This document shows positions 1 through 20,732 of a stretch of 64,000 nucleotides of DNA, piece by piece; the first letter of the stretch is position 1, and the number at the start of each line of letters is the position of its first letter. The position numbers and the translations under genes are program-made. The notes under the pieces are model-generated. The model had not been told where the DNA came from. It searched no databases and saw only the letters and a program-made list of their open reading frames with translations. The DNA lies in assembly GCF_051903065.1 (NCBI RefSeq), contig NZ_CP178438.1; one strand, 5' to 3'. This stretch comes from Escherichia coli (GTDB taxonomy: Bacteria > Pseudomonadota > Gammaproteobacteria > Enterobacterales > Enterobacteriaceae).

Positions 1-6
1 GGTTTA

Positions 7-399
<393 letters not shown>

Positions 400-1557
400 T
401 CAGGATGCGGGGATAACCAACGGTTTATTCCCGCTTAGCTCGGTCACCAGATCATTGATGCCATCGCTCATATTTTTAAAGCGCGTCAACGGCGAACGAG
501 TGACCACCACAAACGCGCCAATATTCTTCTGCGGGATCATCGCCATATAGGTAATGAAACCGCCACCACCACCTGTCTTCTGAATAATCCCCGGACGACC
601 CTCTTTCGGGGCCATATATACCCAGCCTAAACCAAGCGCATCCGCTTTGCCGGGGACATCCATGCCAATCACTTTCGTAAACTGCGCGCGCTGATAAATC
701 AACGTCTGCATGCGATCTGCCTGGTTACTGCGCTGATAAAAATCAGATGACAAATACTGCTGCATCCAGCGCATCATATCGCCAGGCGTGGAATAGACGC
801 CGCCGCTGCCAATTGCCGCCAGCGTGTTATTGCACGGACTGGCACCGCGCTCTGCAACCATTAAACGGCGGCACTGATCCGGTGAGGGGGTGTAGGTGGT
901 GTCTTTCATCCCCAATGGACGGGTAATCTGCTCTTCAAACAACTGGGTATAAGGCTTGCCGGACGCATTCGCCAGTGCATCTGCCAGCAGGTCGAACGCA
1001 AGGTTAGAGTACGCCGCCTGACTGCCTGGCGCGGCTTTCAGCTTCGCCGTAGAAAGGTATTTCCAGCGTTGCTCGCGCGTTGGCCAGACAAACACCGGAC
1101 GATGTGCCGCGCCACCGGGCTGTTCACGGGGCAGGGCGCTGGTATGGGTTGCCAGATTGACCAGCGTAATGGGCGTCCCATTGTAGGTTGGCACGCATGC
1201 GCCTGGCGGAGCATATTTACTTAGCGGATCGTTTAACTTCACGGTCCCCTGGTCGAGCAATTTCACCAGCATCTCACTGGTCATTAGCTTGGTGAGGGAA
1301 GCAATACGCACGACCGAATCCAGCTGCGGGCGAACGTTATTACCAGGTCGCGTTTCGCCATAACTGCGAAAGACGCGCTGGTTACCGTCGATAACAACCA
1401 GCGCCATCCCCGTGGCACCGCTGCCGTAAAAAATATGATCGGCATAACGATCAACAATATCAGAAGCGAACTCCGGTTCAGTGATCGGCTGTGCCGCATG
1501 GACGGAGGTCAATGACGCCGCACACAGCACGGCAGAAAAAAGCAGACTACGTTTCAA
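400..1557 (-). CDS. ampH: Penicillin-binding protein AmpH (class C beta-lactamase-like D-Ala carboxypeptidase)
   Basis: 385-aa ORF with signal peptide and SxxK motif (ASLTK); recognised sequence and synteny. Confidence 0.9.
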   Translation of the reverse strand: MKRSLLFSAVLCAASLTSVHAAQPITEPEFASDIVDRYADHIFYGSGATGMALVVIDGNQRVFRSYGETRPGNNVRPQLDSVVRIASLTKLMTSEMLVKLLDQGTVKLNDPLSKYAPPGACVPTYNGTPITLVNLATHTSALPREQPGGAAHRPVFVWPTREQRWKYLSTAKLKAAPGSQAAYSNLAFDLLADALANASGKPYTQLFEEQITRPLGMKDTTYTPSPDQCRRLMVAERGASPCNNTLAAIGSGGVYSTPGDMMRWMQQYLSSDFYQRSNQADRMQTLIYQRAQFTKVIGMDVPGKADALGLGWVYMAPKEGRPGIIQKTGGGGGFITYMAMIPQKNIGAFVVVTRSPLTRFKNMSDGINDLVTELSGNKPLVIPAS

Positions 1558-1908
1558 CGGTGGTGTCCATAAATTGAATGAAGGTAACTGAGCGTATTTA
1601 TACTACTCATTGATGGATTGCAAAGGGCGAATTAGTGCAATAATAGTGTTAAAAACGTAACGGCGCGTAAACACGATCTTTTTCCTGCTCACCAATGCCT
1701 GCATTTGTGATCCTGCGCGTGTTAATCCGCTTATGTAAACAATCTTTGGTTTGTGAAATCCGTCGAAACAATTCTTATGGTCAGGCTGGCGAACTAAGCG
1801 CCTTGCTATGGGTCACAATGGGCGGTTTCATTTGGCTGACGCTTTGTAGCGGTCATGCGGTTAATACACAGCAGTTGTTAAAACGATAAGAAGTTAGCAG
1901 GAGTGCAT

Positions 1909-3129
1909 ATGTTTAAGTCTTTTTTCCCAAAGCCGGGAACGTTTTTTCTCTCGGCCTTTGTTTGGGCATTGATTGCCGTTATCTTCTGGCAAGCCGGTGG
2001 GGGTGACTGGGTGGCGCGTATCACCGGCGCTTCCGGGCAGATCCCGATTAGCGCCGCGCGTTTCTGGTCGTTGGATTTCCTGATTTTTTACGCTTACTAC
2101 ATTGTTTGCGTAGGACTTTTTGCATTGTTCTGGTTTATCTACAGCCCGCATCGTTGGCAATACTGGTCAATACTCGGTACTGCGCTGATTATCTTCGTCA
2201 CCTGGTTTTTGGTGGAAGTCGGGGTTGCCGTCAACGCCTGGTATGCGCCGTTCTATGATCTGATTCAAACCGCGCTAAGTTCGCCGCATAAAGTCACCAT
2301 CGAACAATTTTACCGCGAAGTGGGCGTCTTTCTGGGGATTGCGCTGATCGCGGTAGTGATCAGTGTGCTGAATAACTTCTTTGTCAGTCACTACGTGTTC
2401 CGCTGGCGTACGGCGATGAACGAATATTACATGGCGAACTGGCAACAACTGCGTCATATCGAAGGCGCCGCACAGCGTGTGCAGGAAGACACCATGCGTT
2501 TTGCTTCAACGCTGGAGAATATGGGTGTCAGTTTTATCAACGCCATCATGACGTTGATCGCCTTCCTGCCGGTGCTGGTAACGCTCTCCGCGCATGTGCC
2601 GGAGCTGCCGATTATCGGGCACATTCCGTATGGTCTGGTGATTGCCGCTATCGTCTGGTCGCTGATGGGGACCGGATTGCTGGCAGTGGTAGGGATCAAA
2701 CTGCCGGGGCTGGAGTTTAAAAACCAGCGAGTAGAGGCTGCCTACCGTAAAGAGCTGGTTTATGGTGAAGACGATGCCACGCGCGCGACGCCGCCTACGG
2801 TACGCGAGCTGTTTAGCGCCGTACGGAAAAACTATTTCCGCCTCTATTTTCACTATATGTATTTCAACATCGCTCGCATTCTCTATTTGCAGGTCGATAA
2901 CGTTTTCGGTTTGTTCTTGCTGTTTCCGTCAATTGTTGCCGGTACGATTACGCTCGGCCTGATGACGCAGATTACCAACGTTTTTGGTCAGGTTCGCGGT
3001 GCTTTCCAGTACCTGATTAACTCATGGACCACACTGGTTGAGTTGATGTCTATCTACAAACGTCTGCGCAGCTTTGAACATGAGCTGGATGGTGACAAAA
3101 TTCAGGAAGTAACCCATACCTTGAGCTAA
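1909..3129 (+). CDS. sbmA: Peptide antibiotic/microcin transporter SbmA
   Basis: Recognised N-terminus [31 protein letters not shown]; ORF-track start at 1903 is 2 codons upstream of the start I recall. Confidence 0.9.
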
Positions 3130-3141
3130 AAAGGAGAAGTA

Positions 3142-4236
3142 ATGTCGCGCGTCAATCATCTATCTTCGCTGTCATTGTTGGCGGTTCTGGTTTTAGCGGG
3201 GTGCAGTAGTCAGGCTCCGCAACCGTTGAAAAAGGGCGAAAAAGAGATAGATGTGGCGAGCGTCGTGCGGCAGAAGATGCCTGCGAACGTGAAAGACCGT
3301 GATGCCTGGGCAAAAGATCTCGCCACCACCTTTGAAAGTCAGGGGCTGGCACCGACGCTGGAAAACGTCTGCTCGGTGCTGGCGGTGGCGCAGCAGGAGT
3401 CAAATTATCAGGCAGATCCGGCCGTTCCGGGCTTAAGCAAAATCGCCTGGCAAGAGATTGACCGTCGTGCTGAACGGATGCACATTCCTCCTTTTCTGGT
3501 TCATACCGCGCTAAAAATCAAATCGCCAAACGGCAAAAGTTATAGCGAACGGTTAGATTCGGTGCGTACAGAAAAGCAATTGAGCGCGATTTTTGACGAT
3601 CTGATCAGCATGGTGCCAATGGGGCAGACGCTGTTTGGTTCGCTTAATCCGGTGCGCACCGGTGGGCCGATGCAGGTCAGCATTGCTTTTGCCGAACAGC
3701 ATACCAAAGGGTATCCGTGGAAAATGGACGGTACAGTCCGTCAGGAAGTCTTTAGTCGCCGCGGCGGGTTGTGGTTTGGTACTTACCATTTACTGAATTA
3801 TCCCGCCAGTTATAGCGCACCGATATACCGTTTTGCTGATTTTAACGCTGGCTGGTACGCCAGCCGTAATGCCGCGTTTCAGAACGCGGTCAGTAAGGCC
3901 AGCGGCGTGAAGCTGGCACTGGACGGTGATTTAATTCGTTACGACAGTAAAGAACCCGGGAAAACCGAACTGGCAACGCGCAAACTGGCGGCAAAACTGG
4001 GGATGAGCGACAGCGAAATTCGTCGTCAGCTAGAGAAAGGTGACAGCTTCTCTTTTGAGGAGACGGCGCTGTACAAGAAAGTTTATCAACTTGCCGAAGC
4101 GAAAACGGGTAAATCACTCCCCCGCGAAATGTTGCCTGGCATTCAACTGGAAAGCCCGAAAATCACCCGCAACCTGACTACGGCCTGGTTTGCGAAGCGC
4201 GTAGACGAACGGCGGGCGCGTTGTATGAAACAGTGA
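3142..4236 (+). CDS. yaiW: Surface-exposed lipoprotein YaiW
   Basis: 364-aa ORF; lipobox LAGC after signal peptide; immediately downstream of sbmA. Confidence 0.85.
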   Translation: MSRVNHLSSLSLLAVLVLAGCSSQAPQPLKKGEKEIDVASVVRQKMPANVKDRDAWAKDLATTFESQGLAPTLENVCSVLAVAQQESNYQADPAVPGLSKIAWQEIDRRAERMHIPPFLVHTALKIKSPNGKSYSERLDSVRTEKQLSAIFDDLISMVPMGQTLFGSLNPVRTGGPMQVSIAFAEQHTKGYPWKMDGTVRQEVFSRRGGLWFGTYHLLNYPASYSAPIYRFADFNAGWYASRNAAFQNAVSKASGVKLALDGDLIRYDSKEPGKTELATRKLAAKLGMSDSEIRRQLEKGDSFSFEETALYKKVYQLAEAKTGKSLPREMLPGIQLESPKITRNLTTAWFAKRVDERRARCMKQ

Positions 4237-4252
4237 TCAAACAGGAATGTCA

Positions 4253-4285
4253 TGCCAGATAAGGCGTTTTAGGCCGTATCTGGCA
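4253..4285. terminator. Inverted repeat (tgccagata...tatctggca) between convergent yaiW and yaiY; REP-like bidirectional terminator
   Basis: 9-bp perfect inverted repeat seen in sequence. Confidence 0.4.
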
Positions 4286-4294
4286 ACGTAAATC

Positions 4295-4603
4295 TTACTG
4301 GCGGCGATGTCGCCAGTGCAGCCATAGCGCCACCACTGCAAAAATGAGGCAGCCTACTAAAAACGGGATCAGCCCGAAAATGGTGCCGACACCTAAACCA
4401 ATTTCCACCCGTGGGCGACCTGTTTCCTGGACCTGCATTAAACGCTCATAGACGCCGGGCGCATGCACTAACAGGTTCAGCAATTGCGCCCCAGCCCAAA
4501 AGCAAAACAGCACAAACAACGCATAGGCAATGTTGCCAGGCGTTGAAGAGGCATTGCGATATTTTCCGCTAAACAGCGATTTTGACAGGGTGAAATCAGC
4601 CAT
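4295..4603 (-). CDS. yaiY: Inner membrane protein YaiY
   Basis: 102-aa hydrophobic ORF; synteny. Confidence 0.8.
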
Positions 4604-4862
4604 AAAAACCTCCGGAAGTCATCTGCTTCTCTTCTGGTGTGATACCAGCGGCTTATGGCAAGTCTGACAGGTCATTTAGATTGTCAATATCAGAATCATG
4701 GTAAATTGATGTTGGGAATATTCCCGAAGCGTGAATCTTCGCTGCGAGTCACAAAATAGCAACTTTAAGTTAAATTTATTAACAATTGCGAAAATGTTGT
4801 CTACACCACAGACGGTTGTTGCAGAATATGCAAGGATGTTGTTTTTCGTTAACGGAGCAGCC

Positions 4863-5075
4863 ATGAATCTGCCTGTAAAAATCCGCCGTGACTGGCACTA
4901 CTATGCGTTCGCCATTGGTCTTATATTCATTCTTAATGGCGTGGTGGGGTTACTGGGATTTGAAGCAAAAGGTTGGCAGACCTATGCCGTCGGTCTGGTG
5001 ACATGGGTGATTAGTTTCTGGCTGGCGGGGTTGATTATTCGTCGTCGCGATGAAGAAACTGAAAACGCCCAATAA
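4863..5075 (+). CDS. yaiZ: Small membrane protein YaiZ (70 aa)
   Basis: ORF-track 114-aa frame trimmed to internal ATG at 4863 (MNLPVKIRRDW...), giving the 70-aa two-TM protein I recall; start choice uncertain. Confidence 0.65.
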   Translation: MNLPVKIRRDWHYYAFAIGLIFILNGVVGLLGFEAKGWQTYAVGLVTWVISFWLAGLIIRRRDEETENAQ

Positions 5076-5098
5076 GAATATTATCGGGCGTTAAAATA

Positions 5099-6193
5099 TT
5101 ACATTGTGGTTTTCAATGCGTTATCCGCAGCGTGACGCTCCAGCGCCAGCTCAATCAAACGTGTGATCAGATCGGTGTAACCCAGACCGCTGGCTTGCCA
5201 CAGCTTCGGATACATACTGATGTTGGTGAAGCCAGGCAGTGTGTTGATCTCGTTGATCACCACTTCGTTCTCTGGGGTTAAAAACACGTCTACACGTGCC
5301 ATGCCTGCGCATCCCAACGTCTGATAAGCTTGAACGGCAATCGCCCGGATCTTATCGTTGATTTCTGGCGCAATGGCTGCCGGAACTACCACTTTCGCGC
5401 CATCTTCGTCAATGTACTTGGTGTCGTAGGCATAGAAATCGCTGGTGAGTACGATCTCACCACAGGTGCTGGCTTGCGGATTGTCGTTGCCCAGAACTGC
5501 GCATTCGATCTCACGACCTTTGATCCCTTGCTCAACGATCACTTTATGATCGAACTCGAACGCCAGATCGACGGCAATTGCGTACTGTTCTTCACTGGTT
5601 ACTTTGCTGACACCAACAGAAGAGCCCTGATTAGCCGGTTTTACAAACAGTGGTAACCCCAGTTTAGACTCCACTTCGGCAAAACTAATGTTGTGACGAT
5701 TAGCGCGCGTCAGGGTAATAAATGGCGCAATGTTCAGCCCGGCATCGCGTAGCAGACGTTTGGTGACATCTTTGTCCATACAGGCTGCTGAAGCCAGAAC
5801 ATCAGAACCTACAAACGGTAAATTGGCGACCCGCAGCATTCCCTGCAAGGAACCATCTTCGCCCAGCGTACCGTGGACAATCGGGAAAATGACATCCACC
5901 GTCGGCAACGGCTGACCGTTTTGCGCGTCGATAAGCTGATGCTCATGTTTACCTGGCACCTGGGCGAGGCTGGTCGCCGAAGGGCGCAACGCAATATGGG
6001 CAGGATCGTCTGCATTTAGCAGATAATTGCTGGCATCGCTGACGTGCCATTGCCCTTGTTTATCAATGCCCAGCAGCACAACGTCGAAGCGACTTTTATC
6101 AATGGCATCGACAATGTTTTTTGCCGATTGCAGAGACACTTCATGTTCCGCTGATTTACCACCAAAAACGATTCCTACCCGCAGTTTTTCCAT
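5099..6193 (-). CDS. ddlA: D-alanine--D-alanine ligase A
   Basis: 364-aa ORF, ATP-grasp Ddl sequence recognised ([33 protein letters not shown]). Confidence 0.95.
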
Positions 6194-6655
6194 CTTAAAA
6201 ACCTATCCCGTCTAACACAAAGTGCATACATTACCACGACAAAACGGGGGATTCGCGGCCTTCTGAAAGATTGTTGCAATCTTCTGCTGACAAAGCGTGC
6301 AACGTACTGGTGAAGAAAGTGCGTTATCTCAAAGATGTGCGCAAGATCACAAAAATGATGAACGGGAAGCTAATTTATTCCTGGCTTAAATGGCCATGCG
6401 GTGAGTTTTTTTCTCTTAATTATAAGTTAACGAAGAGAATATATTTCATAACTTTTATTTATAATAAAGGTTGATAATTAAAAGCCTATATTTTGTGTGG
6501 ATAATTATTTAAATAAGAGAAACGTTTCGCTGGTAATCAAACAAAAAATATTTGCGCAAAGTATTTCCTTTGTCATAAAAATAATACTTCCAGACACTAT
6601 GAAGTTGTGAAACATAATGTTAACTTCTCCATACTTTGGATAAGGAAATACAGAC

Positions 6656-6916
6656 ATGAAAAATCTCATTGCTGAGTTGTTATTTAAGCTTGCCCAAAAA
6701 GAAGAAGAGTCGAAAGAACTGTGTGCGCAGGTAGAAGCTTTGGAGATTATCGTCACTGCAATGCTTCGCAATATGGCGCAAAATGACCAACAACGGTTGA
6801 TTGATCAGGTAGAGGGGGCGCTGTACGAGGTAAAGCCCGATGCCAGCATTCCTGACGACGATACGGAGCTGCTGCGCGATTACGTAAAGAAGTTATTGAA
6901 GCATCCTCGTCAGTAA
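6656..6916 (+). CDS. iraP: Anti-adaptor protein IraP (RpoS stabiliser)
   Basis: 86-aa [35 protein letters not shown]...; preceded by a long AT-rich leader. Confidence 0.85.
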
Positions 6917-6936
6917 AAAGTTAATCTTTTCAACAG

Positions 6937-6956
6937 CTGTCATAAAGTTGTCACGG
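6937..6956 (+). promoter_or_regulatory. Pho box (PhoB binding site) of the phoA promoter
   Basis: ctgtcataaagttgtcacgg matches the Pho-box direct-repeat consensus CTGTCAT-N4-CTGTCAC; a -10-like tatagt follows at 6965-6970. Confidence 0.75.
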
Positions 6957-7016
6957 CCGAGACTTATAGTCGCTTTGTTTTTATTTTTTAATGTATTTGT
7001 ACATGGAGAAAATAAA

Positions 7017-8432
7017 GTGAAACAAAGCACTATTGCACTGGCACTCTTACCGTTACTGTTTACCCCTGTGACAAAAGCCCGGACACCAGAAATGCCTGTT
7101 CTGGAAAACCGGGCTGCTCAGGGCGATATTACTGCACCCGGCGGTGCTCGCCGCTTAACGGCTGATCAGACCGCCGCTCTGCGTGATTCTCTTAGCGATA
7201 AACCTGCAAAAAATATTATTTTGCTGATTGGTGATGGGATGGGGGACTCGGAAATTACTGCCGCACGCAATTATGCCGAAGGTGCGGGCGGCTTTTTTAA
7301 AGGTATCGATGCCTTACCGCTTACCGGGCAATACACTCACTATGCGCTGAATAAAAAAACCGGCAAACCGGACTACGTCACCGACTCGGCTGCATCAGCA
7401 ACCGCCTGGTCAACCGGTGTCAAAACCTATAACGGCGCGCTGGGCGTCGATATTCACGAAAAAGATCACCCAACGATTCTGGAAATGGCAAAAGCCGCAG
7501 GTCTGGCGACCGGTAACGTTTCTACCGCAGAGTTGCAGGATGCCACGCCCGCTGCGCTGGTGGCGCATGTGACCTCGCGCAAATGCTACGGTCCGGGCGC
7601 GACCAGTGAAAAATGTCCGGGTAACGCTCTGGAAAAAGGCGGAAAAGGATCGATTACCGAACAGTTACTTAACGCTCGTGCCGACGTTACGCTTGGCGGT
7701 GGCGCAAAAACCTTTGCTGAAACGGCAACCGCAGGTGAATGGCAGGGAAAAACGCTGCGTGAACAGGCACAGGCGCGTGGTTATCAGTTGGTGAGCGATG
7801 CTGCCTCACTGAATTCGGTGACGGAAGCGAATCAGCAAAAACCCCTGCTTGGCCTGTTTGCTGACGGCAATATGCCAGTGCGCTGGCTAGGACCGAAAGC
7901 AACGTATCACGGTAATATTGATAAGCCCGCAGTCACCTGTACGCCTAATCCGCAACGTAATGACAGTGTACCGACCCTGGCACAGATGACCGACAAAGCC
8001 ATTGAATTGTTGAGTAAAAATGAGAAAGGCTTTTTCCTGCAAGTTGAAGGTGCGTCAATCGATAAACAGGATCATGCTGCGAATCCTTGTGGGCAAATTG
8101 GCGAGACGGTCGATCTCGATGAAGCCGTACAACGGGCGCTGGAATTCGCCAAAAAGGATGGTAACACGTTGGTCATAGTCACCGCTGATCACGCCCACGC
8201 CAGCCAGATTGTTGCGCCGGATACCAAAGCTCCGGGCCTCACCCAGGCGCTAAATACCAAAGATGGCGCAGTGATGGTGATGAGTTACGGGAACTCCGAA
8301 GAGGATTCACAAGAACATACCGGCAGTCAGTTGCGTATTGCGGCGTATGGCCCGCATGCCGCCAATGTCGTTGGACTGACCGACCAGACCGATCTCTTCT
8401 ACACCATGAAAGCCGCTCTGGGGCTGAAATAA
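7017..8432 (+). CDS. phoA: Alkaline phosphatase PhoA (471-aa precursor, GTG start)
   Basis: Recognised signal peptide [21 protein letters not shown]; the ORF-track ATG at 6948 lies inside the Pho box, so the in-frame GTG at 7017 is the likely start. Confidence 0.95.
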
Positions 8433-8439
8433 AACCGCT

Positions 8440-8476
8440 CCCGGCAGTGAATTTTCGCTGCCGGGTGGTTTTTTTG
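8440..8476 (+). terminator. Stem-loop cccggcag/ctgccggg followed by a T-run, downstream of phoA
   Basis: 8-bp perfect stem, 10-nt loop, then tggttttttt. Confidence 0.6.
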
Positions 8477-8550
8477 CTGTTAGCAACCAGACTTAATGGC
8501 AGATCACGGGCGCATACGCTCATGGTTAAAACATGAAGAGGGATGGTGCT

Positions 8551-8871
8551 ATGAAAATAACATTACTGGTTACCTTGCTTTTCGGTCTGGTTTTTTTAAC
8601 CACCGTCGGCGCTGCCGAGAGAACTTTAACCCCACAACAACAGCGTATGACCTCCTGTAATCAGCAGGCGACGGCGCAGGCGTTGAAAGGGGATGCTCGT
8701 AAGACCTACATGAGTGATTGCCTGAAGAACAGCAAGTCTGCGCCTGGCGAAAAAAGTTTGACGCCACAGCAGCAAAAGATGCGCGAATGTAATAATCAAG
8801 CAACGCAACAATCTCTGAAAGGTGATGATCGTAATAAGTTTATGAGTGCCTGCCTCAAGAAAGCCGCCTGA
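8551..8871 (+). CDS. psiF: Phosphate starvation-inducible protein PsiF
   Basis: Signal peptide plus duplicated LTPQQQ(R/K)M..CN.QA motif; trimmed to ATG at 8551. Confidence 0.85.
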   Translation: MKITLLVTLLFGLVFLTTVGAAERTLTPQQQRMTSCNQQATAQALKGDARKTYMSDCLKNSKSAPGEKSLTPQQQKMRECNNQATQQSLKGDDRNKFMSACLKKAA

Positions 8872-8972
8872 CACCTGATAGTGCTAACGGGTGAGCTACG
8901 AAAATGGCTCACCCGAAATTTCATACTTCTGCCTTTAGCTCCGTCTCTATAATTTGGGAAAATTGTTTCTGA

Positions 8973-10088
8973 ATGTTCCCAAAAATAATGAATGATGAAA
9001 ACTTTTTCAAAAAAGCGGCGGCGCACGGGGAGGAACCTCCTTTAACTCCTCAAAACGAACATCAGCGGTCCGGGCTGCGCTTCGCCCGTCGCGTCAGACT
9101 ACCCCGTGCGGTTGGCCTGGCTGGCATGTTCTTACCGATTGCTTCAACGCTGGTTTCACACCCGCCGCCGGGCTGGTGGTGGCTGGTGTTGGTCGGCTGG
9201 GCGTTCGTCTGGCCGCATTTAGCCTGGCAGATAGCGAGCAGGGCCGTCGATCCGCTTAGCCGGGAAATTTACAACTTAAAAACCGATGCAGTATTAGCGG
9301 GAATGTGGGTAGGCGTAATGGGCGTAAACGTGCTGCCTTCCACCGCGATGTTGATGATTATGTGTCTGAATTTGATGGGGGCAGGCGGCCCCCGTCTGTT
9401 TGTCGCGGGTCTGGTGTTGATGGTGGTTTCCTGCCTTGTCACCCTCGAGCTGACGGGCATTACCGTGTCGTTCAATAGTGCGCCGCTGGAATGGTGGCTC
9501 TCCCTTCCCATTATTGTCATTTATCCTCTGCTGTTTGGCTGGGTCAGCTACCAGACGGCAACCAAACTGGCGGAACATAAACGCAGGTTGCAGGTCATGA
9601 GTACACGCGACGGCATGACGGGCGTGTATAACCGACGTCATTGGGAAACTATGTTACGCAATGAATTTGATAACTGTCGGCGACATAATCGCGATGCAAC
9701 GTTACTGATTATCGATATCGACCATTTCAAGAGCATCAACGATACCTGGGGCCATGATGTGGGCGATGAAGCGATTGTGGCGCTTACCCGACAGTTACAA
9801 ATTACCCTGCGTGGTAGCGATGTGATTGGTCGGTTTGGCGGCGATGAGTTTGCAGTAATCATGTCCGGTACGCCAGCTGAGAGCGCCATTACCGCCATGT
9901 TACGAGTGCATGAAGGATTAAATACGTTACGCCTGCCGAATACGCCGCAGGTGATGTTACGGATTAGTGTGGGGGTTGCGCCGCTGAACCCACAAATGAG
10001 TCACTATCGTGAGTGGTTGAAATCGGCAGATTTGGCGCTCTACAAAGCAAAGAAAGCCGGACGTAACCGCACCGAAGTGGCGGCCTGA
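8973..10088 (+). CDS. dgcC: Diguanylate cyclase DgcC (YaiC/AdrA), membrane MASE2 + GGDEF
   Basis: N-terminal TM helices; GGDEF signature RFGGDEF present. Confidence 0.9.
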   Translation: MFPKIMNDENFFKKAAAHGEEPPLTPQNEHQRSGLRFARRVRLPRAVGLAGMFLPIASTLVSHPPPGWWWLVLVGWAFVWPHLAWQIASRAVDPLSREIYNLKTDAVLAGMWVGVMGVNVLPSTAMLMIMCLNLMGAGGPRLFVAGLVLMVVSCLVTLELTGITVSFNSAPLEWWLSLPIIVIYPLLFGWVSYQTATKLAEHKRRLQVMSTRDGMTGVYNRRHWETMLRNEFDNCRRHNRDATLLIIDIDHFKSINDTWGHDVGDEAIVALTRQLQITLRGSDVIGRFGGDEFAVIMSGTPAESAITAMLRVHEGLNTLRLPNTPQVMLRISVGVAPLNPQMSHYREWLKSADLALYKAKKAGRNRTEVAA

Positions 10089-10104
10089 CGTCCGGCGAAA
10101 GTCA

Positions 10105-10914
10105 TCAGGATTTGCTGAGTTTTTCTGATTTTTCCATACACTTCGTCATCGCTTCGATCACTGCAGCACGGAAGCCTTTCTCTTCCAGTACGCGTACCGC
10201 TTCAATGGTGGTGCCTCCCGGTGAGCAGACCATATCTTTCAGTGCCCCTGGATGTTCTCCCGTTTCCAGCACCATTTTTGCGGAACCCATTACCGCCTGA
10301 GCGGCAAATTTATACGCCTGGGCGCGTGGCATCCCGCCCAGCACGGCGGCGTCGGCCATCGCTTCGATAAACATAAATACGTAGGCTGGCGAAGAACCGC
10401 TCACACCGACCACCGGGTGGATCATCGGCTCAGCAATTACTTCCGCTTCGCCAAAGCAGCGGAAAATATTCAGCACATCAGCGGTATCTTCTGGGGTTAC
10501 CAGCGCGTTTGGCGTTACGGAGGTCATCCCGGCATTAACCAGCGCGGGAGTGTTCGGCATGGCGCGGATAATTTTCCGGTCATGGCCCAGCGCGCGGGCA
10601 AGCTGGTCGAGCGTGACACCTGCAGCAATAGAAACGACCAGAGAGTCTTTATTGAGGCTGGAGGTGATTTCGCTAAGCACTTTAATCATGATGCCAGGTT
10701 TAACGGCGGCAAAAATGATGTCGGCGATTTGCGCCACTTCTTGCGCCGATTCTGCGGCGTTGATGCCGAACTGGTCATGCAGGGCGGCGACTTTATCCGG
10801 GGAGGGGGTGTATACCCAGATTTGCCCTGGAAGCACCTGACCGCTGGCAATCAGACCGCCGAGAATGGCTTTTCCCATATTGCCGCAGCCAATAAAACCG
10901 ATTTTCTTTTCCAT
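10105..10914 (-). CDS. proC: Pyrroline-5-carboxylate reductase
   Basis: Rossmann motif FIGCGNMG; trimmed to MEKKIGFIG start (269 aa). Confidence 0.9.
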
Positions 10915-11033
10915 TGCCTCACTCCTGCCGTGAAATTCATTGTTTTGATAATCGCTGGCAGAAGCATAAACAGAACTATGCCGGAAGGCAAAAGCGCGAC
11001 ACAATAGAGGATTACCCAACAAAGGATGACTTT

Positions 11034-11492
11034 ATGACAATTTGGGTGGATGCCGACGCGTGTCCCAATGTAATTAAAGAGATTTTGTATCGCGCGGCGG
11101 AACGTATGCAGATGCCGCTGGTACTGGTAGCAAACCAGAGTTTACGCGTGCCGCCATCGCGATTTATTCGTACGCTGCGCGTCGCGGCAGGTTTCGACGT
11201 TGCCGATAACGAAATTGTCCGGCAGTGTGAAGCGGGCGATTTGGTGATCACCGCAGATATACCTTTGGCTGCTGAAGCCATCGAGAAAGGCGCTGCGGCG
11301 CTTAATCCGCGCGGTGAACGTTACACGCCAGCGACCATTCGTGAGCGCCTGACGATGCGCGATTTTATGGATACCTTACGTGCCAGTGGGATCCAGACCG
11401 GCGGACCAGATAGCCTTTCACAACGTGACCGCCAGGCATTTGCCGCGGAGCTGGAGAAGTGGTGGCTGGAAGTGCAACGTAGTCGTGGCTAA
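11034..11492 (+). CDS. yaiI: UPF0178 family protein YaiI
   Basis: ORF trimmed to [13 protein letters not shown] (152 aa); divergent from proC. Confidence 0.8.
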
Positions 11493-11494
11493 AT

Positions 11495-11617
11495 GTAATT
11501 TATTATTTACACTTCATTCTTGAATATTTATTGGTATAGTAAGGGATGTATTGAGATTTTCACTTTAAGTGGAATTTTTTCTTTACAATCGAAATTGTAC
11601 TAGTTTGATGGTATGAT
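11495..11617 (+). promoter_or_regulatory. aroL promoter region with TyrR boxes and a TrpR operator-like site
   Basis: tgtaatttattatttaca (11495-11512) and tggaattttttctttaca (11571-11588) fit TGTAAA-N6-TTTACA; gtactagtttgatggta (11598-11614) resembles a trp operator half-site arrangement; tatgat -10 candidate at 11612-11617. Confidence 0.6.
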
Positions 11618-11674
11618 CGCTATTCTCATGACACCGGCTTTCGCCGCATTGCGACCTATTGGGGAAAACCCACG

Positions 11675-12199
11675 ATGACACAACCTCTTTTTCTGATTGG
11701 GCCTCGGGGCTGTGGTAAAACAACGGTCGGAATGGCCCTTGCCGATTCGCTTAACCGTCGGTTTGTCGATACCGATCAGTGGTTGCAATCACAGCTCAAT
11801 ATGACGGTCGCGGAGATCGTCGAAAGGGAAGAGTGGGCGGGATTTCGCGCCAGAGAAACGGCGGCGCTGGAAGCGGTAACTGCGCCATCCACCGTTATCG
11901 CTACAGGCGGCGGCATTATTCTGACGGAATTTAATCGTCACTTCATGCAAAATAACGGGATCGTGGTTTATTTGTGTGCGCCAGTATCAGTCCTGGTTAA
12001 CCGACTGCAAGCTGCACCGGAAGAAGATTTACGGCCAACCTTAACGGGAAAACCGCTGAGCGAAGAAGTTCAGGAAGTGCTGGAAGAACGCGATGCGCTA
12101 TATCGTGAAGTTGCGCATATTATCATCGACGCAACAAACGAACCCAGCCAGGTGATTTCTGAAATTCGCAGCGCCCTGGCACAGACGATCAATTGTTGA
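11675..12199 (+). CDS. aroL: Shikimate kinase II
   Basis: 174 aa; P-loop GPRGCGKTT. Confidence 0.95.
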
Positions 12200-12239
12200 T
12201 TTTCGAGCGCCTATACTTAACGTTCATCCCGTGAAATAA

Positions 12240-12440
<201 letters not shown>

Positions 12441-12697
12441 CCGCATCAGACTGCTCGGAAGGGATTCTGAGTGCCACTACAAGGGATCTGCGTCACATTT
12501 TTCATAATTCATGTTTTTCAAATAATTAGAATATTAAACAATAACAATCCATTACTGGAATCATTTGGAATCTTTACATTATGCCGTGCACGTCTGCTGC
12601 TACGCTTTTTGTCATTTGTAGCACAAGTAAGTGTCAGCAGTGGTGCTTAACACTTGCCCGGTAATTAACGACGAAATAAAAGTAAGGTGGAAGAACA

Positions 12698-13375
12698 ATG
12701 AGTGCGTCGTTGGCGATTCTAACCATCGGCATTGTACCTATGCAGGAAGTTTTGCCGCTCCTGACAGAATACATTGACGAAGATAATATTTCCCATCATA
12801 GCCTGCTGGGGAAGTTAAGCCGCGAAGAAGTGATGGCGGAGTACGCGCCAGAAGCAGGCGAAGACACAATTCTCACATTATTAAATGACAACCATTTGGT
12901 CCATGTTTCGCGTCGCAAAGTAGAGCGTGACCTGCAAGGTGTGGTTGAAGTGCTCGATAATCAGGGCTACGACGTCATTATATTAATGAGTACGGCAAAC
13001 ATTAGTAGTATGACTGCGCGTAATACGATCTTTCTTGAGCCGTCGCGGATATTGCCACCGCTGGTTTCCTCTATTGTTGAAGATCATCAGGTGGGGGTTA
13101 TCGTACCGGTTGAGGAGTTGCTGACCGTTCAGGCGCAAAAATGGCAAATTTTGCAGAAACCGCCGGTATTTTCATTGGGTAACCCCATTCATGATTCAGA
13201 ACAAAAAATCATTGATGCCGGGAAAGAATTACTGGCGAAAGGCGCAGATGTCATCATGCTGGATTGTTTGGGATTTAACCAGCGTCATCGCGATTTACTG
13301 CAAAAACAGCTCGATGTTCCTGTCTTGCTCTCTAACGTATTGATTGCACGGCTGGCTGCGGAATTACTGGTGTAA
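12698..13375 (+). CDS. aroM: AroM family protein
   Basis: 225-aa ORF; synteny. Confidence 0.85.
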
Positions 13376-13446
13376 TTTTGCGTGACAGCCAGCGCATCTG
13401 GCCCCTATAGTGAAGTAGATGTTCAACTACCAGACAGGGCCAGTTT

Positions 13447-13731
13447 ATGCTTCAAAGTAATGAGTACTTTTCCGGCAAAGTGAAATCGATCGGCTTTTCC
13501 AGCAGCAGCACTGGTCGCGCCAGCGTGGGTGTTATGGTTGAAGGCGAATACACCTTCAGCACCGCTGAGCCGGAAGAGATGACGGTAATCAGTGGCGCGC
13601 TGAATGTGTTACTGCCTGACGCGACCGACTGGCAAGTGTATGAAGCCGGTTCGGTGTTTAATGTTCCCGGTCACAGTGAGTTTCATCTGCAAGTTGCCGA
13701 ACCCACCTCTTATCTGTGCCGCTATCTGTAA
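13447..13731 (+). CDS. ppnP: Pyrimidine/purine nucleoside phosphorylase PpnP (YaiE)
   Basis: 94-aa cupin-like ORF; synteny. Confidence 0.85.
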
Positions 13732-15001
13732 TTCCTCGCCTTCCCCTTGAACGGGAGGGCATTTTTCTGAAATATCCTCTCTTTAACCCATAATAATATT
13801 TCCTTTGCTGCGATTTTTTCAATTTCCGATATATTCATAATTCATCAAGGTTGATATCAATATCATTGAAGATTATGAATAGAATTAATATATTGGTCAT
13901 CTGTATGGTCGTGTTTTTTATGACTGGCAATGCATGTGCCACAGAGTGGATCAGTAGCGAGGACCTTATCACCTCTGACTTTCATCTTATGACGGCAGAT
14001 GAGCGCAACGTGGTTAAAGCGGCAACCGACGATAGTATGGAAGCTGCTTATATGCTAAAAGATAATATCCGCTGGTATTATCATAATGGTAACCTATCAT
14101 TACCCGCTAACTTCAGCAATCAAAATAAACTGGTGGTGAACGGTAATTTAACGATTTCCGGCGATTATGATGATTATCTGTCAGGTAATGGTCATCTGAT
14201 TGTATTAGGTAATGTTATTGTCGATAACTTTATTAATCATGATTTCGCGTATGTCAAAGGACAGATGACAGCGAAAGGTTTAGTTTATGCTGATTACAAT
14301 GATCACAACTTTGAAGTGATGAAGGGAATTAGCGCGCGAGGCATTATTGTTTCCGATAAAGCAACGCAATTTGAGGTCATCAAAGCTGAGTTTTATATCA
14401 ATGAAGATGAAAGCGGTGAAGGATATAACTGGGATGAGAATATTCAAAAAGCCTATTCACTGGTGACTGCCGATCTTTATGATCACACTGAAATCGAAAC
14501 CGATAACATTTCCAATGCGTATCCTGACTATGATAGCGTCGCAGACAACATCGTTCAGGGTTTACCTCTTTTTTGCGATAAAGCCGCTCCTGAAATTAAT
14601 GAGAAATTAAAATGGATTGAAACGGGGAAACTCGATAATTTCCCAGCGAATAAAATAAAGCATCAAGATCCACTGGTGGCACGTTTTCTGACTCATACAG
14701 AGAGTTTATCACCCGCCGTTATGCTGCAACTGTTACAGCACCCCGATGACCAGACGCGTGAATCGATGGCGCAGTCCTGGCCCGCTCAACAGATGCATTT
14801 GCTTACCGATGAATTAATTAAAGATGAGGCTGTTGCCAGAGGGCTGGTTAAAAACAGTAATATTTCCGCCGATGTGAATAAAAAATTAATGTCTGTACCC
14901 GTCGAGAGCGTACAGCTGGAGCAGGCCAGACAGGATAATCTTTCTCCAGATATTGTTGCGTCGTTAAGTCATAGCCCCTTTCTCAGTGTACGCAAGACAT
15001 T

Positions 15002-15010
15002 ACTCAGCCA
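15002..15010. repeat. IS1 target-site duplication, left copy (actcagcca)
   Basis: Identical 9-mer directly flanks both IS1 ends. Confidence 0.9.
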
Positions 15011-15065
15011 GGTGATGCTGCCAACTTACTGATTTAGTGTATGATGGTGTTTTTGAGGTGCTCCA

Positions 15066-15341
15066 GTGGCTTCTGTTTCTATCAGCTGTCCCTCCTGTTC
15101 AGCTACTGACGGGGTGGTGCGTAACGGCAAAAGCACCGCCGGACATCAGCGCTATCTCTGCTCTCACTGCCGTAAAACATGGCAACTGCAGTTCACTTAC
15201 ACCGCTTCTCAACCCGGTACGCACCAGAAAATCATTGATATGGCCATGAATGGCGTTGGATGCCGGGCAACAGCCCGCATTATGGGCGTTGGCCTCAACA
15301 CGATTTTACGTCACTTAAAAAACTCAGGCCGCAGTCGGTAA
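15066..15341 (+). CDS. insA: IS1 InsA (transposition inhibitor)
   Basis: 91-aa [43 protein letters not shown]... recognised. Confidence 0.9.
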
Positions 15342-15763
15342 CCTCGCGCATACAGCCGGGCAGTGACGTCATCGTCTGCGCGGAAATGGACGAACAGTGG
15401 GGCTATGTCGGGGCTAAATCGCGCCAGCGCTGGCTGTTTTACGCGTATGACAGGCTCCGGAAGACGGTTGTTGCGCACGTATTCGGTGAACGCACTATGG
15501 CGACGCTGGGGCGTCTTATGAGCCTGCTGTCACCCTTTGACGTGGTGATATGGATGACGGATGGCTGGCCGCTGTATGAATCCCGCCTGAAGGGAAAGCT
15601 GCACGTAATCAGCAAGCGATATACGCAGCGAATTGAGCGGCATAACCTGAATCTGAGGCAGCACCTGGCACGGCTGGGACGGAAGTCGCTGTCGTTCTCA
15701 AAATCGGTGGAGCTGCATGACAAAGTCATCGGGCATTATCTGAACATAAAACACTATCAATAA
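15260..15763 (+). CDS. insB: IS1 InsB frame (expressed as the InsAB' transposase by -1 frameshift)
   Basis: 167-aa ORF in the -1 frame relative to insA, overlapping its 3' end. Confidence 0.85.
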
Positions 15764-15778
15764 GTTGGAGTCATTACC

Positions 15779-15787
15779 ACTCAGCCA
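15779..15787. repeat. IS1 target-site duplication, right copy (actcagcca)
   Basis: Identical to 15002-15010. Confidence 0.9.
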
Positions 15788-16927
15788 TTACGATTACGCC
15801 TGGCTGGTTCCGACTGCAGTGGCCGATGAGTTGATAAATAACGAAGACCCGGAGTTACGTGAAAGAATTACCGGAGCAGATTTAACCGCACAACAAGCAG
15901 TGATGTTGAGTAAAGATAAATCACTGAAAGTTCGTGAAGCATTAGCCCGGACGCTTACTGAATTAAAAATTACCCAACTGTCAGCAACCCTGCGTACAGA
16001 GGATATTGAACGTATCGCAGAACAAATGTATCTGGATAATAAAGAAAATAAAAATATCGTAAAAGCGTTATTGATAGCGTTGCCGGAGATGCGTCAACTG
16101 TCTCTGGCAAAAGAAGATGTGCACAATTTGCGCGAAGGTGCGCGTTATCTGACATCGAAGGACGTGATTAGTTATCTATTGACTCAGCATGATGTTCCCA
16201 CCGTCTGGGATGAGCTGGCACGCGATAAATTATTGCCGCTGGAATATAAGAAACAGTTATGGCAACGCACATTAAATTTAATGATGAGCAAACGGCAAGA
16301 AGATCAAGAGCAAGCCTACGAAGTACAGCTGGCGCTGATTGATAATGGTGTTGTTGACGAAGAGATGTTAAATAATGCCATTGATTTACTGGTTGATTTA
16401 CCCGCTGAATACCGCTATCGAATGCGTAACCAATTATTTGATAATAAAGATTTACCTTCCGGAATTATCAACAAACTCGATCAACAGTATCGCTTCAACT
16501 CTGACTGGGCGCTGTCTGTTGACAGTATGAAAAATAGCACCCGTAGGCAAAGTGAAAGAGGATTACACCGCTGGAACCGTGAGGATAGCGATATTTTTGC
16601 GGAACTGGCGACGATAAAAGATAAATCAGATGATGAATGGTGGCGTGCATTGCTGCAAAGTCGCAATGATCATTTGCGCCAAACGGCATTACGCAACGCA
16701 CATACCCCGGCGTCGTTGTTAACGACATTGACTGAGCCTCAGGATCGGTCGCTGGCTATTAATAATCCACAGCTGGCTGCCGATGTGAAAACGGCGTGGT
16801 TAAAAGAGGATCCATCATTACTCTTATTTGTCGAACAACCCGATCTTTCGCTGTTACGTGATTTAGTGAAAACCGGGGCAACGCGGAAAATTCGCAGTGA
16901 AGCGCGTCACCGGCTTGAGGAAAAACA

Positions 16928-17383
16928 ATGACACAACGTCCATGGAGCAAGTTACAGCGGGAGATCTATGACTTACTGACGCCAACGATCAACCTGCAAA
17001 TTCACTGTACCCGTTATCCCATGCGCAGCCAAAATGGTGGAAGCACCGATTTACCGCGTTATTGGATCACGTTGGATAAAAACGTGATCTGGGATTACCC
17101 GAAAGACTTTATTGCAGGTAACGGTGGAGTGCGTAATTTTCACGGTGAAACTTGCTGGTATCCTTACCTGACGGATATTTGTTCAATTTCTGATTTATTG
17201 CGTGAATATATTGATACCCCAAAAGCGGAGCTGTTAACAAAACAATTTACCAGCGATAAATGGGGGTTAGTGAATATTCTGCGTGCTGCTGACAGGCGAA
17301 TAGGGATGAGGCGATTAGATCAGTTACGGCGTAAAACGCATAATATTGCTGCGCTAAAAATTATTGCCCGCCGTAGCGAATAA
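16928..17383 (+). CDS. Hypothetical 151-aa protein, translationally coupled to the IS1-interrupted gene
   Basis: Start overlaps upstream stop (ATGA at 16928-16931); no family recognised. Confidence 0.55.
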
Positions 17384-17408
17384 TTATATCCCTGGTATGG
17401 CTTCGTAC

Positions 17409-17441
17409 GCCGGATAAGACGCGGCAGGCGTCGCATCCGGC
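17409..17441. repeat. REP (repetitive extragenic palindrome) element
   Basis: gccggataagacgcggcaggcgtcgcatccggc, typical E. coli REP. Confidence 0.65.
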
Positions 17442-17460
17442 ATTAAAGGAAAATCAGCAA

Positions 17461-18372
17461 TTAACGTTGTGCTTCGCCACCTAATCCTTCAATCAGGTTT
17501 TGAATTAACGCTGCCAGTTCACCAGTCATCAGGATGAAATCGGCATCAAAACGCTGGGCGAAATCTTCACGGTCGATATCTTCGTTTTGATCGCGCAGCT
17601 CGTCGCAGAACTTCAGACGCTTGAGCGAACCATCGTCGCACATCACAAACTGAATGCGCTGCTGCCAGTCGAGCGCCAGTTTAGTCACCACTTTTCCGGC
17701 TTCAATGTGATTGGTGATCTCTTCGCTGGTCAGATCTTGTTTCTTCGCGCGGATCACTCCGCCATCTTCCAGCAACGATTTCAGCTCGGCTTCATCAAGC
17801 AGCTGGAAGCCCTGTGCCGCACTACCGGAACGTACCCATTCGGTCAGCGTCAGTTCAATCGGGTTTTCCATGCTCAATGGTACAACCGGTAACGACCCCA
17901 GGCTTTTACGCAGCAGTGCCAGCGTATCTTCCGCTTTTTTGGCACTGGCGCAGTCCACCATAATCAAACCGTTAACCGTGTCGATCCACATCATTGTCTG
18001 GCTAAAACGGCTGAAAGCACGCGGCAACAGAGAGTGCAGCACTTCGTCTTTCAGCGAATCTTTTTCGGTTTTCTTCAGCTTACGCGCCTGTTCCGCTTCC
18101 AGTTTGGCGATTTTCGCTTCCAGCGCCTGTTTAATCACCGGAGACGGTAGGATTTTTTCTTCTTTGCGCGCGCAGATAACAATTTGACCATTGGCAACGT
18201 GCGTTAACGCATCGCTGTGCGATCCCATCGGAGGAACCCAGCCCATCTTCGCCATGTCCTGGCTGCCGCATGGGGTAAATGCCATCGAGGCTAGCTGTTT
18301 TTCCATCTCTTCTGCACGCAGCGAAATCTCGCGGCTAAGACGGTAAACCATTAAATTTTTGAACCACAGCAT
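17461..18372 (-). CDS. rdgC: Recombination-associated protein RdgC
   Basis: Trimmed to [12 protein letters not shown] start (303 aa); recognised sequence. Confidence 0.9.
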
Positions 18373-18496
18373 GATAATTTCCACGGCCTTGTCGTTAAAT
18401 TTAGCGGGCATGATAACGAATTGTCGGCGGCCTTGCATTGCCAATCCGGTTGTCCGTCTCTACGCTATTGATATTGAAAAAAATAAGGAGAGTACC

Positions 18497-19405
18497 GTGC
18501 GTATAGGTATCGATTTAGGCGGCACCAAAACTGAAGTGATTGCACTGGGCGATGCAGGGGAGCAGTTGTACCGCCATCGTCTGCCCACGCCGCGTGATGA
18601 TTACCGGCAGACTATTGAAACGATCGCCACGTTGGTTGATATGGCGGAGCAGGCGACGTGGCAGCGCGGAACGGTAGGTATGGGCATTCCTGGCTCAATT
18701 TCGCCTTACACCGGTGTGGTGAAGAATGCCAATTCAACCTGGCTCAACGGTCAGCCATTCGATAAAGACTTAAGCGCGAGGTTGCAGCGGGAAGTGCGGC
18801 TGGCAAATGACGCCAACTGTCTGGCGGTTTCAGAAGCAGTAGATGGCGCGGCAGCGGGAGCGCAGACGGTATTTGCCGTGATTATCGGCACGGGATGCGG
18901 CGCGGGCGTGGCATTCAATGGGCGGGCGCATATCGGCGGCAATGGCACGGCAGGTGAGTGGGGACACAATCCGCTACCGTGGATGGACGAAGACGAACTG
19001 CGTTATCGCGAGGAAGTCCCTTGTTATTGCGGTAAACAAGGTTGTATTGAAACCTTTATTTCGGGCACGGGATTCGCGACGGATTATCGTCGTTTGAGCG
19101 GACATGCGCTGAAAGGCAGTGAAATTATCCGCCTGGTTGAAGAAAACGATCCGGTAGCGGAACTGGCATTGCGTCGCTACGAGCTGCGGCTGGCAAAATC
19201 GCTGGCACATGTCGTGAATATTCTCGATCCGGATGTGATTGTCCTGGGGGGCGGGATGAGCAATGTAGACCGTTTATATCAAACGGTTCCGCAGTTGATT
19301 AAACAATTTGTCTTCGGCGGCGAATGTGAAACGCCGGTGCGTAAGGCGAAGCACGGTGATTCCAGCGGCGTACGCGGCGCTGCGTGGTTATGGCCACAAG
19401 AGTAA
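18497..19405 (+). CDS. mak: Fructokinase/manno(fructo)kinase Mak (ROK family), GTG start
   Basis: [17 protein letters not shown]-terminus; SD aaggag at 18485-18490; the upstream ATG extension overlaps rdgC and is rejected. Confidence 0.9.
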
Positions 19406-19428
19406 AAAACCCAGGCAATTGGCGCATC

Positions 19429-19510
19429 ATGCCTGATGCGACGCTTGCCGCGTCTTATCAGGCCTACAAAATGTGCCAGAACCGCGTAGGGCGGATAAGG
19501 CGTTCACGCC
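19429..19510. repeat. BIME/REP cluster between mak and araJ
   Basis: gcctgatgcgacgcttgccgcgtcttatcaggcctac and ggcggataaggcgttcacgccgcatccggc. Confidence 0.65.
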
Positions 19511-19547
19511 GCATCCGGCAATAAGCAACGCGCTCCGTGACTGCAAT

Positions 19548-20732
19548 CTACCCCAGAGGTTTCGCCAGCACCGGAGTATCCGCCGCTTGCTGGCGCTTAT
19601 AGCGACCATACAGCAGCAATGATGACATCGCAGCAAACGAAAGCAGGGCGGCAGGCAGCGCCACGTAATTATATGCCAGCCCCAGCGTCAGCATCATACC
19701 TCCGCAATATGCGCCGACGGCGCTACCGAGGTTAAACGCTATTTGCCCACCTGCGGCACCTAATAACTCTCCGCCTTTGGCATTTTGCAGTAACAATATT
19801 TGCAGAGGTGCTGAAAGGGCAAATAATCCCGCGCAACAAATAAAAGCAAAAATAAGCGACGTTGTTTTCATGCCGCCGCAGAAAAAGAGCATCAGCAGTG
19901 CCAGTACAATGATAAAGTCAGTCACTGCTGCAATGCGCAGTGGTGAATAACGTCCTGAAATCCTGCCACTTAGCATATTTCCCAGCACCATCCCTAGCCC
20001 AACTAACATCATAATAAAGGTCATCGCCGTTTCCGAAAAACCGGAAATAAACATCATGTATGGCTTTACGTAGCTGAACCAGGCAAATACACCTGCGTTG
20101 CCAAACATGGTGGCGGCGAAAATTAACCACGGGGCCGGGCTGCGCAAAAAGTGAAATTGTTCGCGCAGCTTTCCTTTCGCCTCGTCGCGAATATCCGGCA
20201 CCCAAAAATAGACCGATGCCATCACCGCAATATTAAAAACAGCGATCAATAAAAAGGTGTAACGCCAGCTAAATTCCTGACTTAAATACGTTCCCAGCGG
20301 AATGCCCAGCAAATTGGCGACTGTCATCCCGGAAACCATCCCCGCCACGGCGGCGGTGACTTTTCCGGGTTTGATAATTTTTGATAACACGATCGCTCCG
20401 ACGCCAAAAAATGCGCCATGCGGAAAGCCGGAAACCAGGCGACCAATGGCAAGCATCAGGTAAGACGAAGAGAGCGTGAACATGGCGTTGCCAATGACGC
20501 ACAACGCCACCAGAAACAACAAGATATGTTTGAGTGAGTAGCGGCTGGAAAAGAGTGCGATTATTGGCGCACCGACCACCACCCCCAGCGCATAATACGA
20601 GATCATATGCCCGGCAGCAGGAATCGAAATTCCTACGTTATGCGCCAGCTCCGTGAGCACGCCCATAATGCCAAATTCGGCCATCCCCAAACCAAACGTG
20701 CCCAGAGCCAAAGATAAAATGACTTTTTTCAT
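19548..20732 (-). CDS. araJ: MFS transporter AraJ
   Basis: 12-TM MFS sequence; trimmed to MKKVILSLALG start (394 aa). Confidence 0.85.
   Translation of the reverse strand: MKKVILSLALGTFGLGMAEFGIMGVLTELAHNVGISIPAAGHMISYYALGVVVGAPIIALFSSRYSLKHILLFLVALCVIGNAMFTLSSSYLMLAIGRLVSGFPHGAFFGVGAIVLSKIIKPGKVTAAVAGMVSGMTVANLLGIPLGTYLSQEFSWRYTFLLIAVFNIAVMASVYFWVPDIRDEAKGKLREQFHFLRSPAPWLIFAATMFGNAGVFAWFSYVKPYMMFISGFSETAMTFIMMLVGLGMVLGNMLSGRISGRYSPLRIAAVTDFIIVLALLMLFFCGGMKTTSLIFAFICCAGLFALSAPLQILLLQNAKGGELLGAAGGQIAFNLGSAVGAYCGGMMLTLGLAYNYVALPAALLSFAAMSSLLLYGRYKRQQAADTPVLAKPLG

Follow-up and report, generated by a model that had tools for sequence, protein, structure and literature searches.

A complete copy of the insertion sequence IS1 was located inside a gene between ppnP and rdgC in the stretch of 64,000 nucleotides from Escherichia coli contig NZ_CP178438.1 that was analyzed here, and which we refer to in its entirety as the window. 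The element was flanked by 2 copies of a 9-bp target-site duplication and separated the 5′ and 3′ fragments of the gene, the latter of which overlapped a smaller gene located immediately downstream. The features at the locus were as follows, with all positions given in window coordinates:

13875-15032, + strand: 5′ part of the interrupted DUF2773-family gene, with the start codon according to the annotation of the intact gene
15002-15010: left copy of the target-site duplication, ACTCAGCCA, 9 bp
15011-15778, + strand: complete IS1 of the IS1A type, 768 bp, assigned by sequence identity
15011-15033, + strand: IRL, left terminal inverted repeat, 23 bp, from comparison with the reverse-complemented right end
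15018-15045, + strand: promoter-like site CTGCCA-16-TATGAT, in and just after IRL, from a consensus scan
15066-15341, + strand: insA, 91 amino acids, GTG start, with NCBIfam matches to the IS1 transposase and to a zinc-binding domain
15260-15763, + strand: insB' reading frame, an ORF of 167 amino acids, matching NCBIfam NF033558 (transpos_IS1)
15315-15323, + strand: TTAAAAAAC, A6C programmed -1 frameshift motif, the predicted join between insA and insB'
15756-15778, + strand: IRR, right terminal inverted repeat, 23 bp
15779-15787: right copy of the target-site duplication, ACTCAGCCA, 9 bp
15788-16931, + strand: 3′ part of the interrupted gene, with codons 380 to 759, the stop codon, and the Pfam DUF2773 domain
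16928-17383, + strand: SF0329-family gene, 151 amino acids, matching NCBIfam NF049912 and Pfam PF25753

The element began with GGTGATGCTGCCAACTTACTGAT and ended with ATCAATAAGTTGGAGTCATTACC, and was complete to the final base at both ends. Its terminal inverted repeats were imperfect, with matches at 18 of the 23 positions when IRL was compared with the reverse complement of IRR. Both InsA and InsB' matched the NCBIfam IS1 transposase model, InsB' with 145.6 bits to NF033558 (transpos_IS1; cutoff 100), and the motif TTAAAAAAC is annotated as "programmed frameshift" in identical IS1 copies elsewhere. The promoter-like site at 15018-15045 is presumably the promoter of IS1 itself, judging from its position in the element. 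Thus, the length, the terminal repeats, the insA/insB' organization with its A6C motif, the 9-bp duplication, and the sequence identity all placed the element in the IS1 family. E. coli chromosomes and plasmids carry many copies, annotated as "IS1-like element IS1A family", to which the element was 100% identical over its 768 bp. The IS1A copy in K-12 MG1655 (NC_000913.3, 19796-20563) was identical at 767 of the 768 positions and shared the length of 768 bp, the insA/insB' layout, the A6C motif, and the imperfect repeats of 23 bp; the single difference was located at IS1 position 444, which is G in the window and T in K-12, and the 2 copies were inserted at different sites. The element is apparently a canonical and functional IS1A-type element, its capacity for transposition being suggested by its undamaged sequence and by how recently it was inserted.

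The initial annotation had described an IS1 of 768 bp between identical 9-mers at 15002-15010 and 15779-15787, and these positions, as well as those of the element itself (15011-15778), were confirmed. The 9-mer ACTCAGCCA had no further occurrence on the + strand of the 64-kb window, and the probability that 9 of 9 bases match by chance at 2 fixed positions is approximately 4e-6. The junctions of the insertion were represented by the 30-mers AAGACATTACTCAGCCAGGTGATGCTGCCA and GGAGTCATTACCACTCAGCCATTACGATTA.

To identify the empty site, we removed IS1 and one of the 9-mers and used the resulting sequence of 600 bp as the query. A contiguous empty site was found in 442 of the 5,426 complete E. 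coli genomes, including O145 strains in which the match was 100% identical and located within a single CDS. The decisive comparison was provided by strain 23CRST027 (NZ_AP045789.1), in which the segments corresponding to window positions 1-15010 and 15779-19970 abutted with an overlap of 9 bp on the subject sequence, which means that the target 9-mer is present once in that genome. When IS1 and one copy of the duplication were removed from the window, the remaining 63,223 bp differed from 23CRST027 by 3 SNPs and no indels. On the right-hand side of the insertion, 24 kb were 100.0% identical to 23CRST027, 23CRST031, and ECNB21-M121, and the rebuilt locus of 2,952 bp was likewise 100.0% identical to 23CRST027.

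In both 23CRST027 and O145 RM9872, the empty site was located within one CDS of 2,280 bp, encoding a protein of 759 amino acids annotated as "DUF2773 domain-containing protein", the stop codon of which overlapped the start of a 456-bp gene for an "SF0329 family protein". The rebuilt gene reads ...RKTLLSHYDYAWLVP... across the empty site and contained no internal stop codon. Since the sequence is a single CDS in genomes without the insertion, the ORFs at 13851-15032 and 15765-16931 are the 2 halves of one gene. The initial annotation had proposed that the ancestral gene could be rebuilt exactly, with the junction ...RKTLLS-HYDYAWLVP..., and had suggested a comparison with strains lacking IS1 at this site, with non-identical 9-mers or separate genes in such strains as the outcomes that would speak against it. 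That comparison has now been made: the 9-mers were identical, and the reconstruction, including the junction, was borne out by the single 759-codon CDS.

It was also noted that the window contained several other accessory genes. An intact gene of 523 amino acids between pgpA and yajO (46979-48550, - strand) was annotated, by collinearity with NZ_AP045789.1, as encoding the pentapeptide-repeat protein EspY3, a type III secretion effector. The SNP at window position 47318, which is among the 3 that separate the window from 23CRST027, was located in this gene and was synonymous. The accessory block between yajR and cyoE (58568-60396), in which all ORFs were intact, contained a gene for a tetratricopeptide-repeat protein of 311 amino acids on the + strand and an overlapping pair of genes for a GNAT acetyltransferase and a TacA-family antitoxin on the - strand. 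Finally, an intact ORF of 461 amino acids was located between malZ and acpH (32768-34153, + strand), for which the annotation of the near-identical genome gives only a hypothetical protein.

The insertion itself was found in none of the 5,426 complete E. coli genomes, as judged from a search with a query that spanned both junctions with 300 bp of flanking sequence on each side, and for which a coverage of at least 80% was required. Searches for exact matches to the truncated ORF products, with 10 alternative starts, gave no hits in a collection of 15 billion proteins, a result that says little about rarity because its outcome hinges on how the genes were called. The absence from the searched collections indicates that the insertion is rare, not that it is unique.

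Because IS1 is a multicopy element, which was present in 4,950 of the 5,426 complete E. coli genomes at a median of 11 sites each, and because repeats often cause misassembly, an insertion seen in a single genome and absent from every other genome searched might result from an assembly error or a chimeric joining of sequences rather than being a real feature. However, a misjoin would not yield an exact 9-bp duplication together with 2 flanks that follow an insertion-free genome in both order and register, nor would it be expected to preserve an IS1 copy that is full to the last base at either end, and we consider an artefact to be extremely improbable. The insertion is real, very recent, and private to this strain or lineage, as indicated by the combination of a near-identical relative without IS1, an exact target duplication, and an element identical to common copies. 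The earlier suggestion of little decay since the insertion agreed well with the 3 SNPs in 63 kb and with the 100% identity of the element to widespread copies.

The insertion point of IS1 follows nucleotide 1,136 of the gene, inside codon 379 of 759. The 5′ fragment consists of 378 native codons, the junction codon, and 6 codons derived from IS1, which together with the junction codon specify the tail QVMLPTY, and ends with the stop codon at 15030-15032. The initial annotation had emphasized a frame-preserving geometry, and it is correct that IS1 plus one duplication amounts to 777 bp and that the flanking ORFs share the same frame. However, this was rejected as a meaningful property, because 768 + 9 = 777 applies to every canonical IS1 insertion and because the host frame is filled with stop codons inside the element, 13 in total, the first of which is met after 7 codons. 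The frame match can therefore not allow translation through IS1 and is without translational consequence.

Two further observations on the reading frames probably represent coincidences: insA (15066-15341) shares its reading frame with the host gene (13875-15032), and the host frame is reopened by a TTG codon at 15765, which is located 2 bases past the stop codon of insB'. None of the candidate start codons of the 3′ fragment that were inspected (TTG at 15765, GTG at 15819, ATG at 15903, and ATG at 16026) was preceded by a Shine-Dalgarno sequence. From these data, we infer that the IS1 insertion has abolished the function of the DUF2773-family gene, and the ORFs at 13851-15032 and 15765-16931 merit annotation as one disrupted gene.

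The only domain identified by Pfam in the rebuilt protein of 759 amino acids was DUF2773 (PF10971), at residues 679 to 759 (E = 4.6e-44, covering model positions 1 to 81 of 81), and intact orthologs are named DUF2773 domain-containing protein in RefSeq. The N-terminus, MNRINILVICMVVFFMTGNACA, looks like a signal peptide when read from the amino acid sequence. The SF0329 protein matched the SF0329 family only, with a hit to NCBIfam NF049912 over residues 6 to 148 with 94.6 bits (cutoff 60), and PF25753 is on record for a protein identical to the one encoded in the window. No match to the 759-amino-acid protein was obtained in NCBIfam, no solved structure for either of the 2 proteins or their relatives was found among the PDB sequences, and PADLOC assigned neither gene to a defence family. 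A scan of positions 12000-19000 against Rfam revealed no RNA family, and the literature search for DUF2773 returned one unrelated preprint only.

Close relatives of the protein encoded by the disrupted gene were confined to Escherichia, with identities of 98%, 90%, and 74%. A homology search identified one further relative with 49% identity in an assembly of a public sequencing run, and the distant K-12 paralog at the ydbD locus showed 26% to 38% amino acid sequence identity. The target of the insertion is an Escherichia-restricted accessory gene.

The start codon of the SF0329 gene overlaps the stop codon of the upstream gene (ATGA), and it has a ribosome-binding site of its own, GAGGA, located 7 nt before the ATG. 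The segment from the SF0329 gene to the end of rdgC (17384-17460) contained a GC-rich palindromic stretch, GCCGGATAAGACGCGGCAGGCGTCGCATCCGGC, which resembles a REP-type element.

As the initial annotation had noted, IS1 has the same orientation as its host gene, with insA on the + strand (15066-15341) like the gene itself, and this raised the question of whether the insertion has a regulatory effect, such that a promoter in IS1, or a hybrid promoter formed at its right end, drives transcription of the 3′ fragment and the SF0329-family gene. In agreement with such an effect, a consensus scan identified no intrinsic terminator on the + strand within IS1, for which reason a degree of transcription starting at the native or the IS1 promoter may pass through the element, and the SF0329 gene could be translated with the help of its own GAGGA site from any transcript that arrives there. 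PMC12095673 cites Prentki et al. (1986) for hybrid promoters created by IS1 insertions and Hubner et al. (1987) for a terminator sequence within IS1, the latter of which speaks against a regulatory effect.

However, the consensus scan revealed no promoter-like site on the + strand between 15046 and 17383, and thus none between the right junction and the start of the SF0329 gene. A hybrid promoter at the right junction was rejected as a candidate, since nothing there reached the scan threshold of 9 of 12 consensus positions; the best candidate found by eye, TTGGAG-18-TACGAT, matched 7 of 12. Moreover, the start of the SF0329 gene is located 1.15 kb past the right junction, across RNA that is untranslated, and the promoter of IS1 is weak and repressed by InsA. 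Taken together, we consider it very unlikely that the insertion acts in a regulatory manner, although some residual read-through into the C-terminal fragment or the SF0329 gene may occur.

IS1 insertions are polar in both orientations, an effect that is mediated by Rho. We therefore rank a reduced expression of the SF0329 gene through polarity as likelier than read-through, given that transcripts would have to cross about 1.9 kb of mostly untranslated sequence (the insB' region and the 3′ fragment), which would invite Rho-dependent termination.

The locus is very probably explained by a recent and canonical insertion of IS1A in codon 379, which has resulted in a simple loss of function of an accessory gene. 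According to this explanation, an IS1A-type element was inserted into codon 379 of a 759-codon accessory gene of Escherichia, with the usual target duplication of 9 bp, and the gene represents the full-length form, in the DUF2773 family, of the ykiA pseudogene in K-12. The product would be at most 385 residues long and would comprise the N-terminal half, with its signal-peptide-like start, followed by QVMLPTY, while the C-terminal half would probably not be usefully translated and expression of the overlapping SF0329-family gene would presumably be lowered by polarity.

The event is of a kind that is already known, a textbook IS1 insertion that has knocked out an ordinary accessory gene. Its main use is as a strain-specific marker and for the correct annotation of the pseudogene. 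Together with the near-identical genome that lacks the insertion, it also provides a natural pair of knockout and wild type for an Escherichia-restricted protein, probably an exported one, and for the small protein coupled to it, and it adds one more independent inactivation to those at a locus undergoing decay throughout the species.

To put this decay into perspective, at least 80% of the 2,952-bp locus was retained in only 443 of the 5,426 complete genomes. When 50 records were sampled at even intervals from the ranking, intact loci accounted for about 8%, loci that had retained only the SF0329 gene for a further 8% or so, and K-12-like loci for about 80%. A deletion of 1,939 bp with identical end points, which has removed the start and most of the DUF2773-family gene, was common to K-12 and to the genomes with only the SF0329 gene, and about 9 of 10 complete E. 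coli genomes, K-12 included, already carry this deletion. The K-12-type genomes contained a second deletion, of 362 bp, inside the SF0329 gene. In strain MB53 (CP073939.1, segment L008 3000-3775), the sequence from the start of the locus to approximately nucleotide 1051 of the gene was replaced by other sequence. It was also noted that an insertion sequence of about 1.3 kb, encoding a DDE transposase of 402 amino acids, was located between the SF0329 gene and rdgC in this strain (L008 5470-6803).

An IS1 element was also identified in the paralogous DUF2773-family gene ydbD in strain N9 (NZ_CM165877.1, segment L013 4016-4783), where it splits the gene and is flanked by the 9-bp duplication TCCCTGCCA. 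This copy differed from the window IS1 by one base, was inserted in the opposite orientation to the gene, and was located elsewhere in the genome, in the ynbA-pdxI region. A flanking similarity of 16 nt was considered as an indication of a shared target site but was rejected as a partial match that has arisen by chance, given that the 2 loci are different.

A counterpart was found in strain XJ5.2 (NZ_CP074354.1, segment L016 3341-4108), whose copy of this DUF2773-family gene between ppnP and rdgC is likewise interrupted by an IS1 that is oriented as in the window. However, the XJ5.2 element is a different variant with 97.8% identity to the window IS1, and its junctions are unlike those in the window, with nucleotides 698 to 1704 of the gene being replaced, corresponding to a loss of 1,007 bp. 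The different variant and the different junctions indicate that the insertion in XJ5.2 was an independent event. In light of this independent hit and of the deletion in about 9 of 10 complete genomes, the gene is plainly dispensable, and its disruption by IS1 comes as no surprise.

At least 5 independent lesions have accumulated in the gene pair, namely the 1,939-bp deletion, the 362-bp deletion, the replacement in MB53, the IS1 insertion with deletion in XJ5.2, and the IS1 insertion in the window. It is conceivable that selection has repeatedly favored the loss of the pair between ppnP and rdgC in E. coli, although we regard this as unlikely. If it were true, the insertion would represent a fresh and fully reversible snapshot of adaptive gene loss, and the isogenic pair formed with 23CRST027 would offer a means to determine the cost of an uncharacterised secreted protein.

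The corresponding genes in K-12 are located at the same chromosomal locus, between ppnP and rdgC: the pseudogene ykiA represents the final 342 bp of the disrupted gene, and ykiD is a remnant of the SF0329-family gene. The segments of the window that are missing from K-12 were as follows:

13874-16589 and 16960-17321: window equivalents of the sequence missing from K-12 (K-12 segment L014, 3104-3479)

Thus, the genes were lost in K-12 through 2 deletions, of 1,939 bp and 362 bp, and not through an insertion sequence, whereas the window has retained all of the coding sequence.
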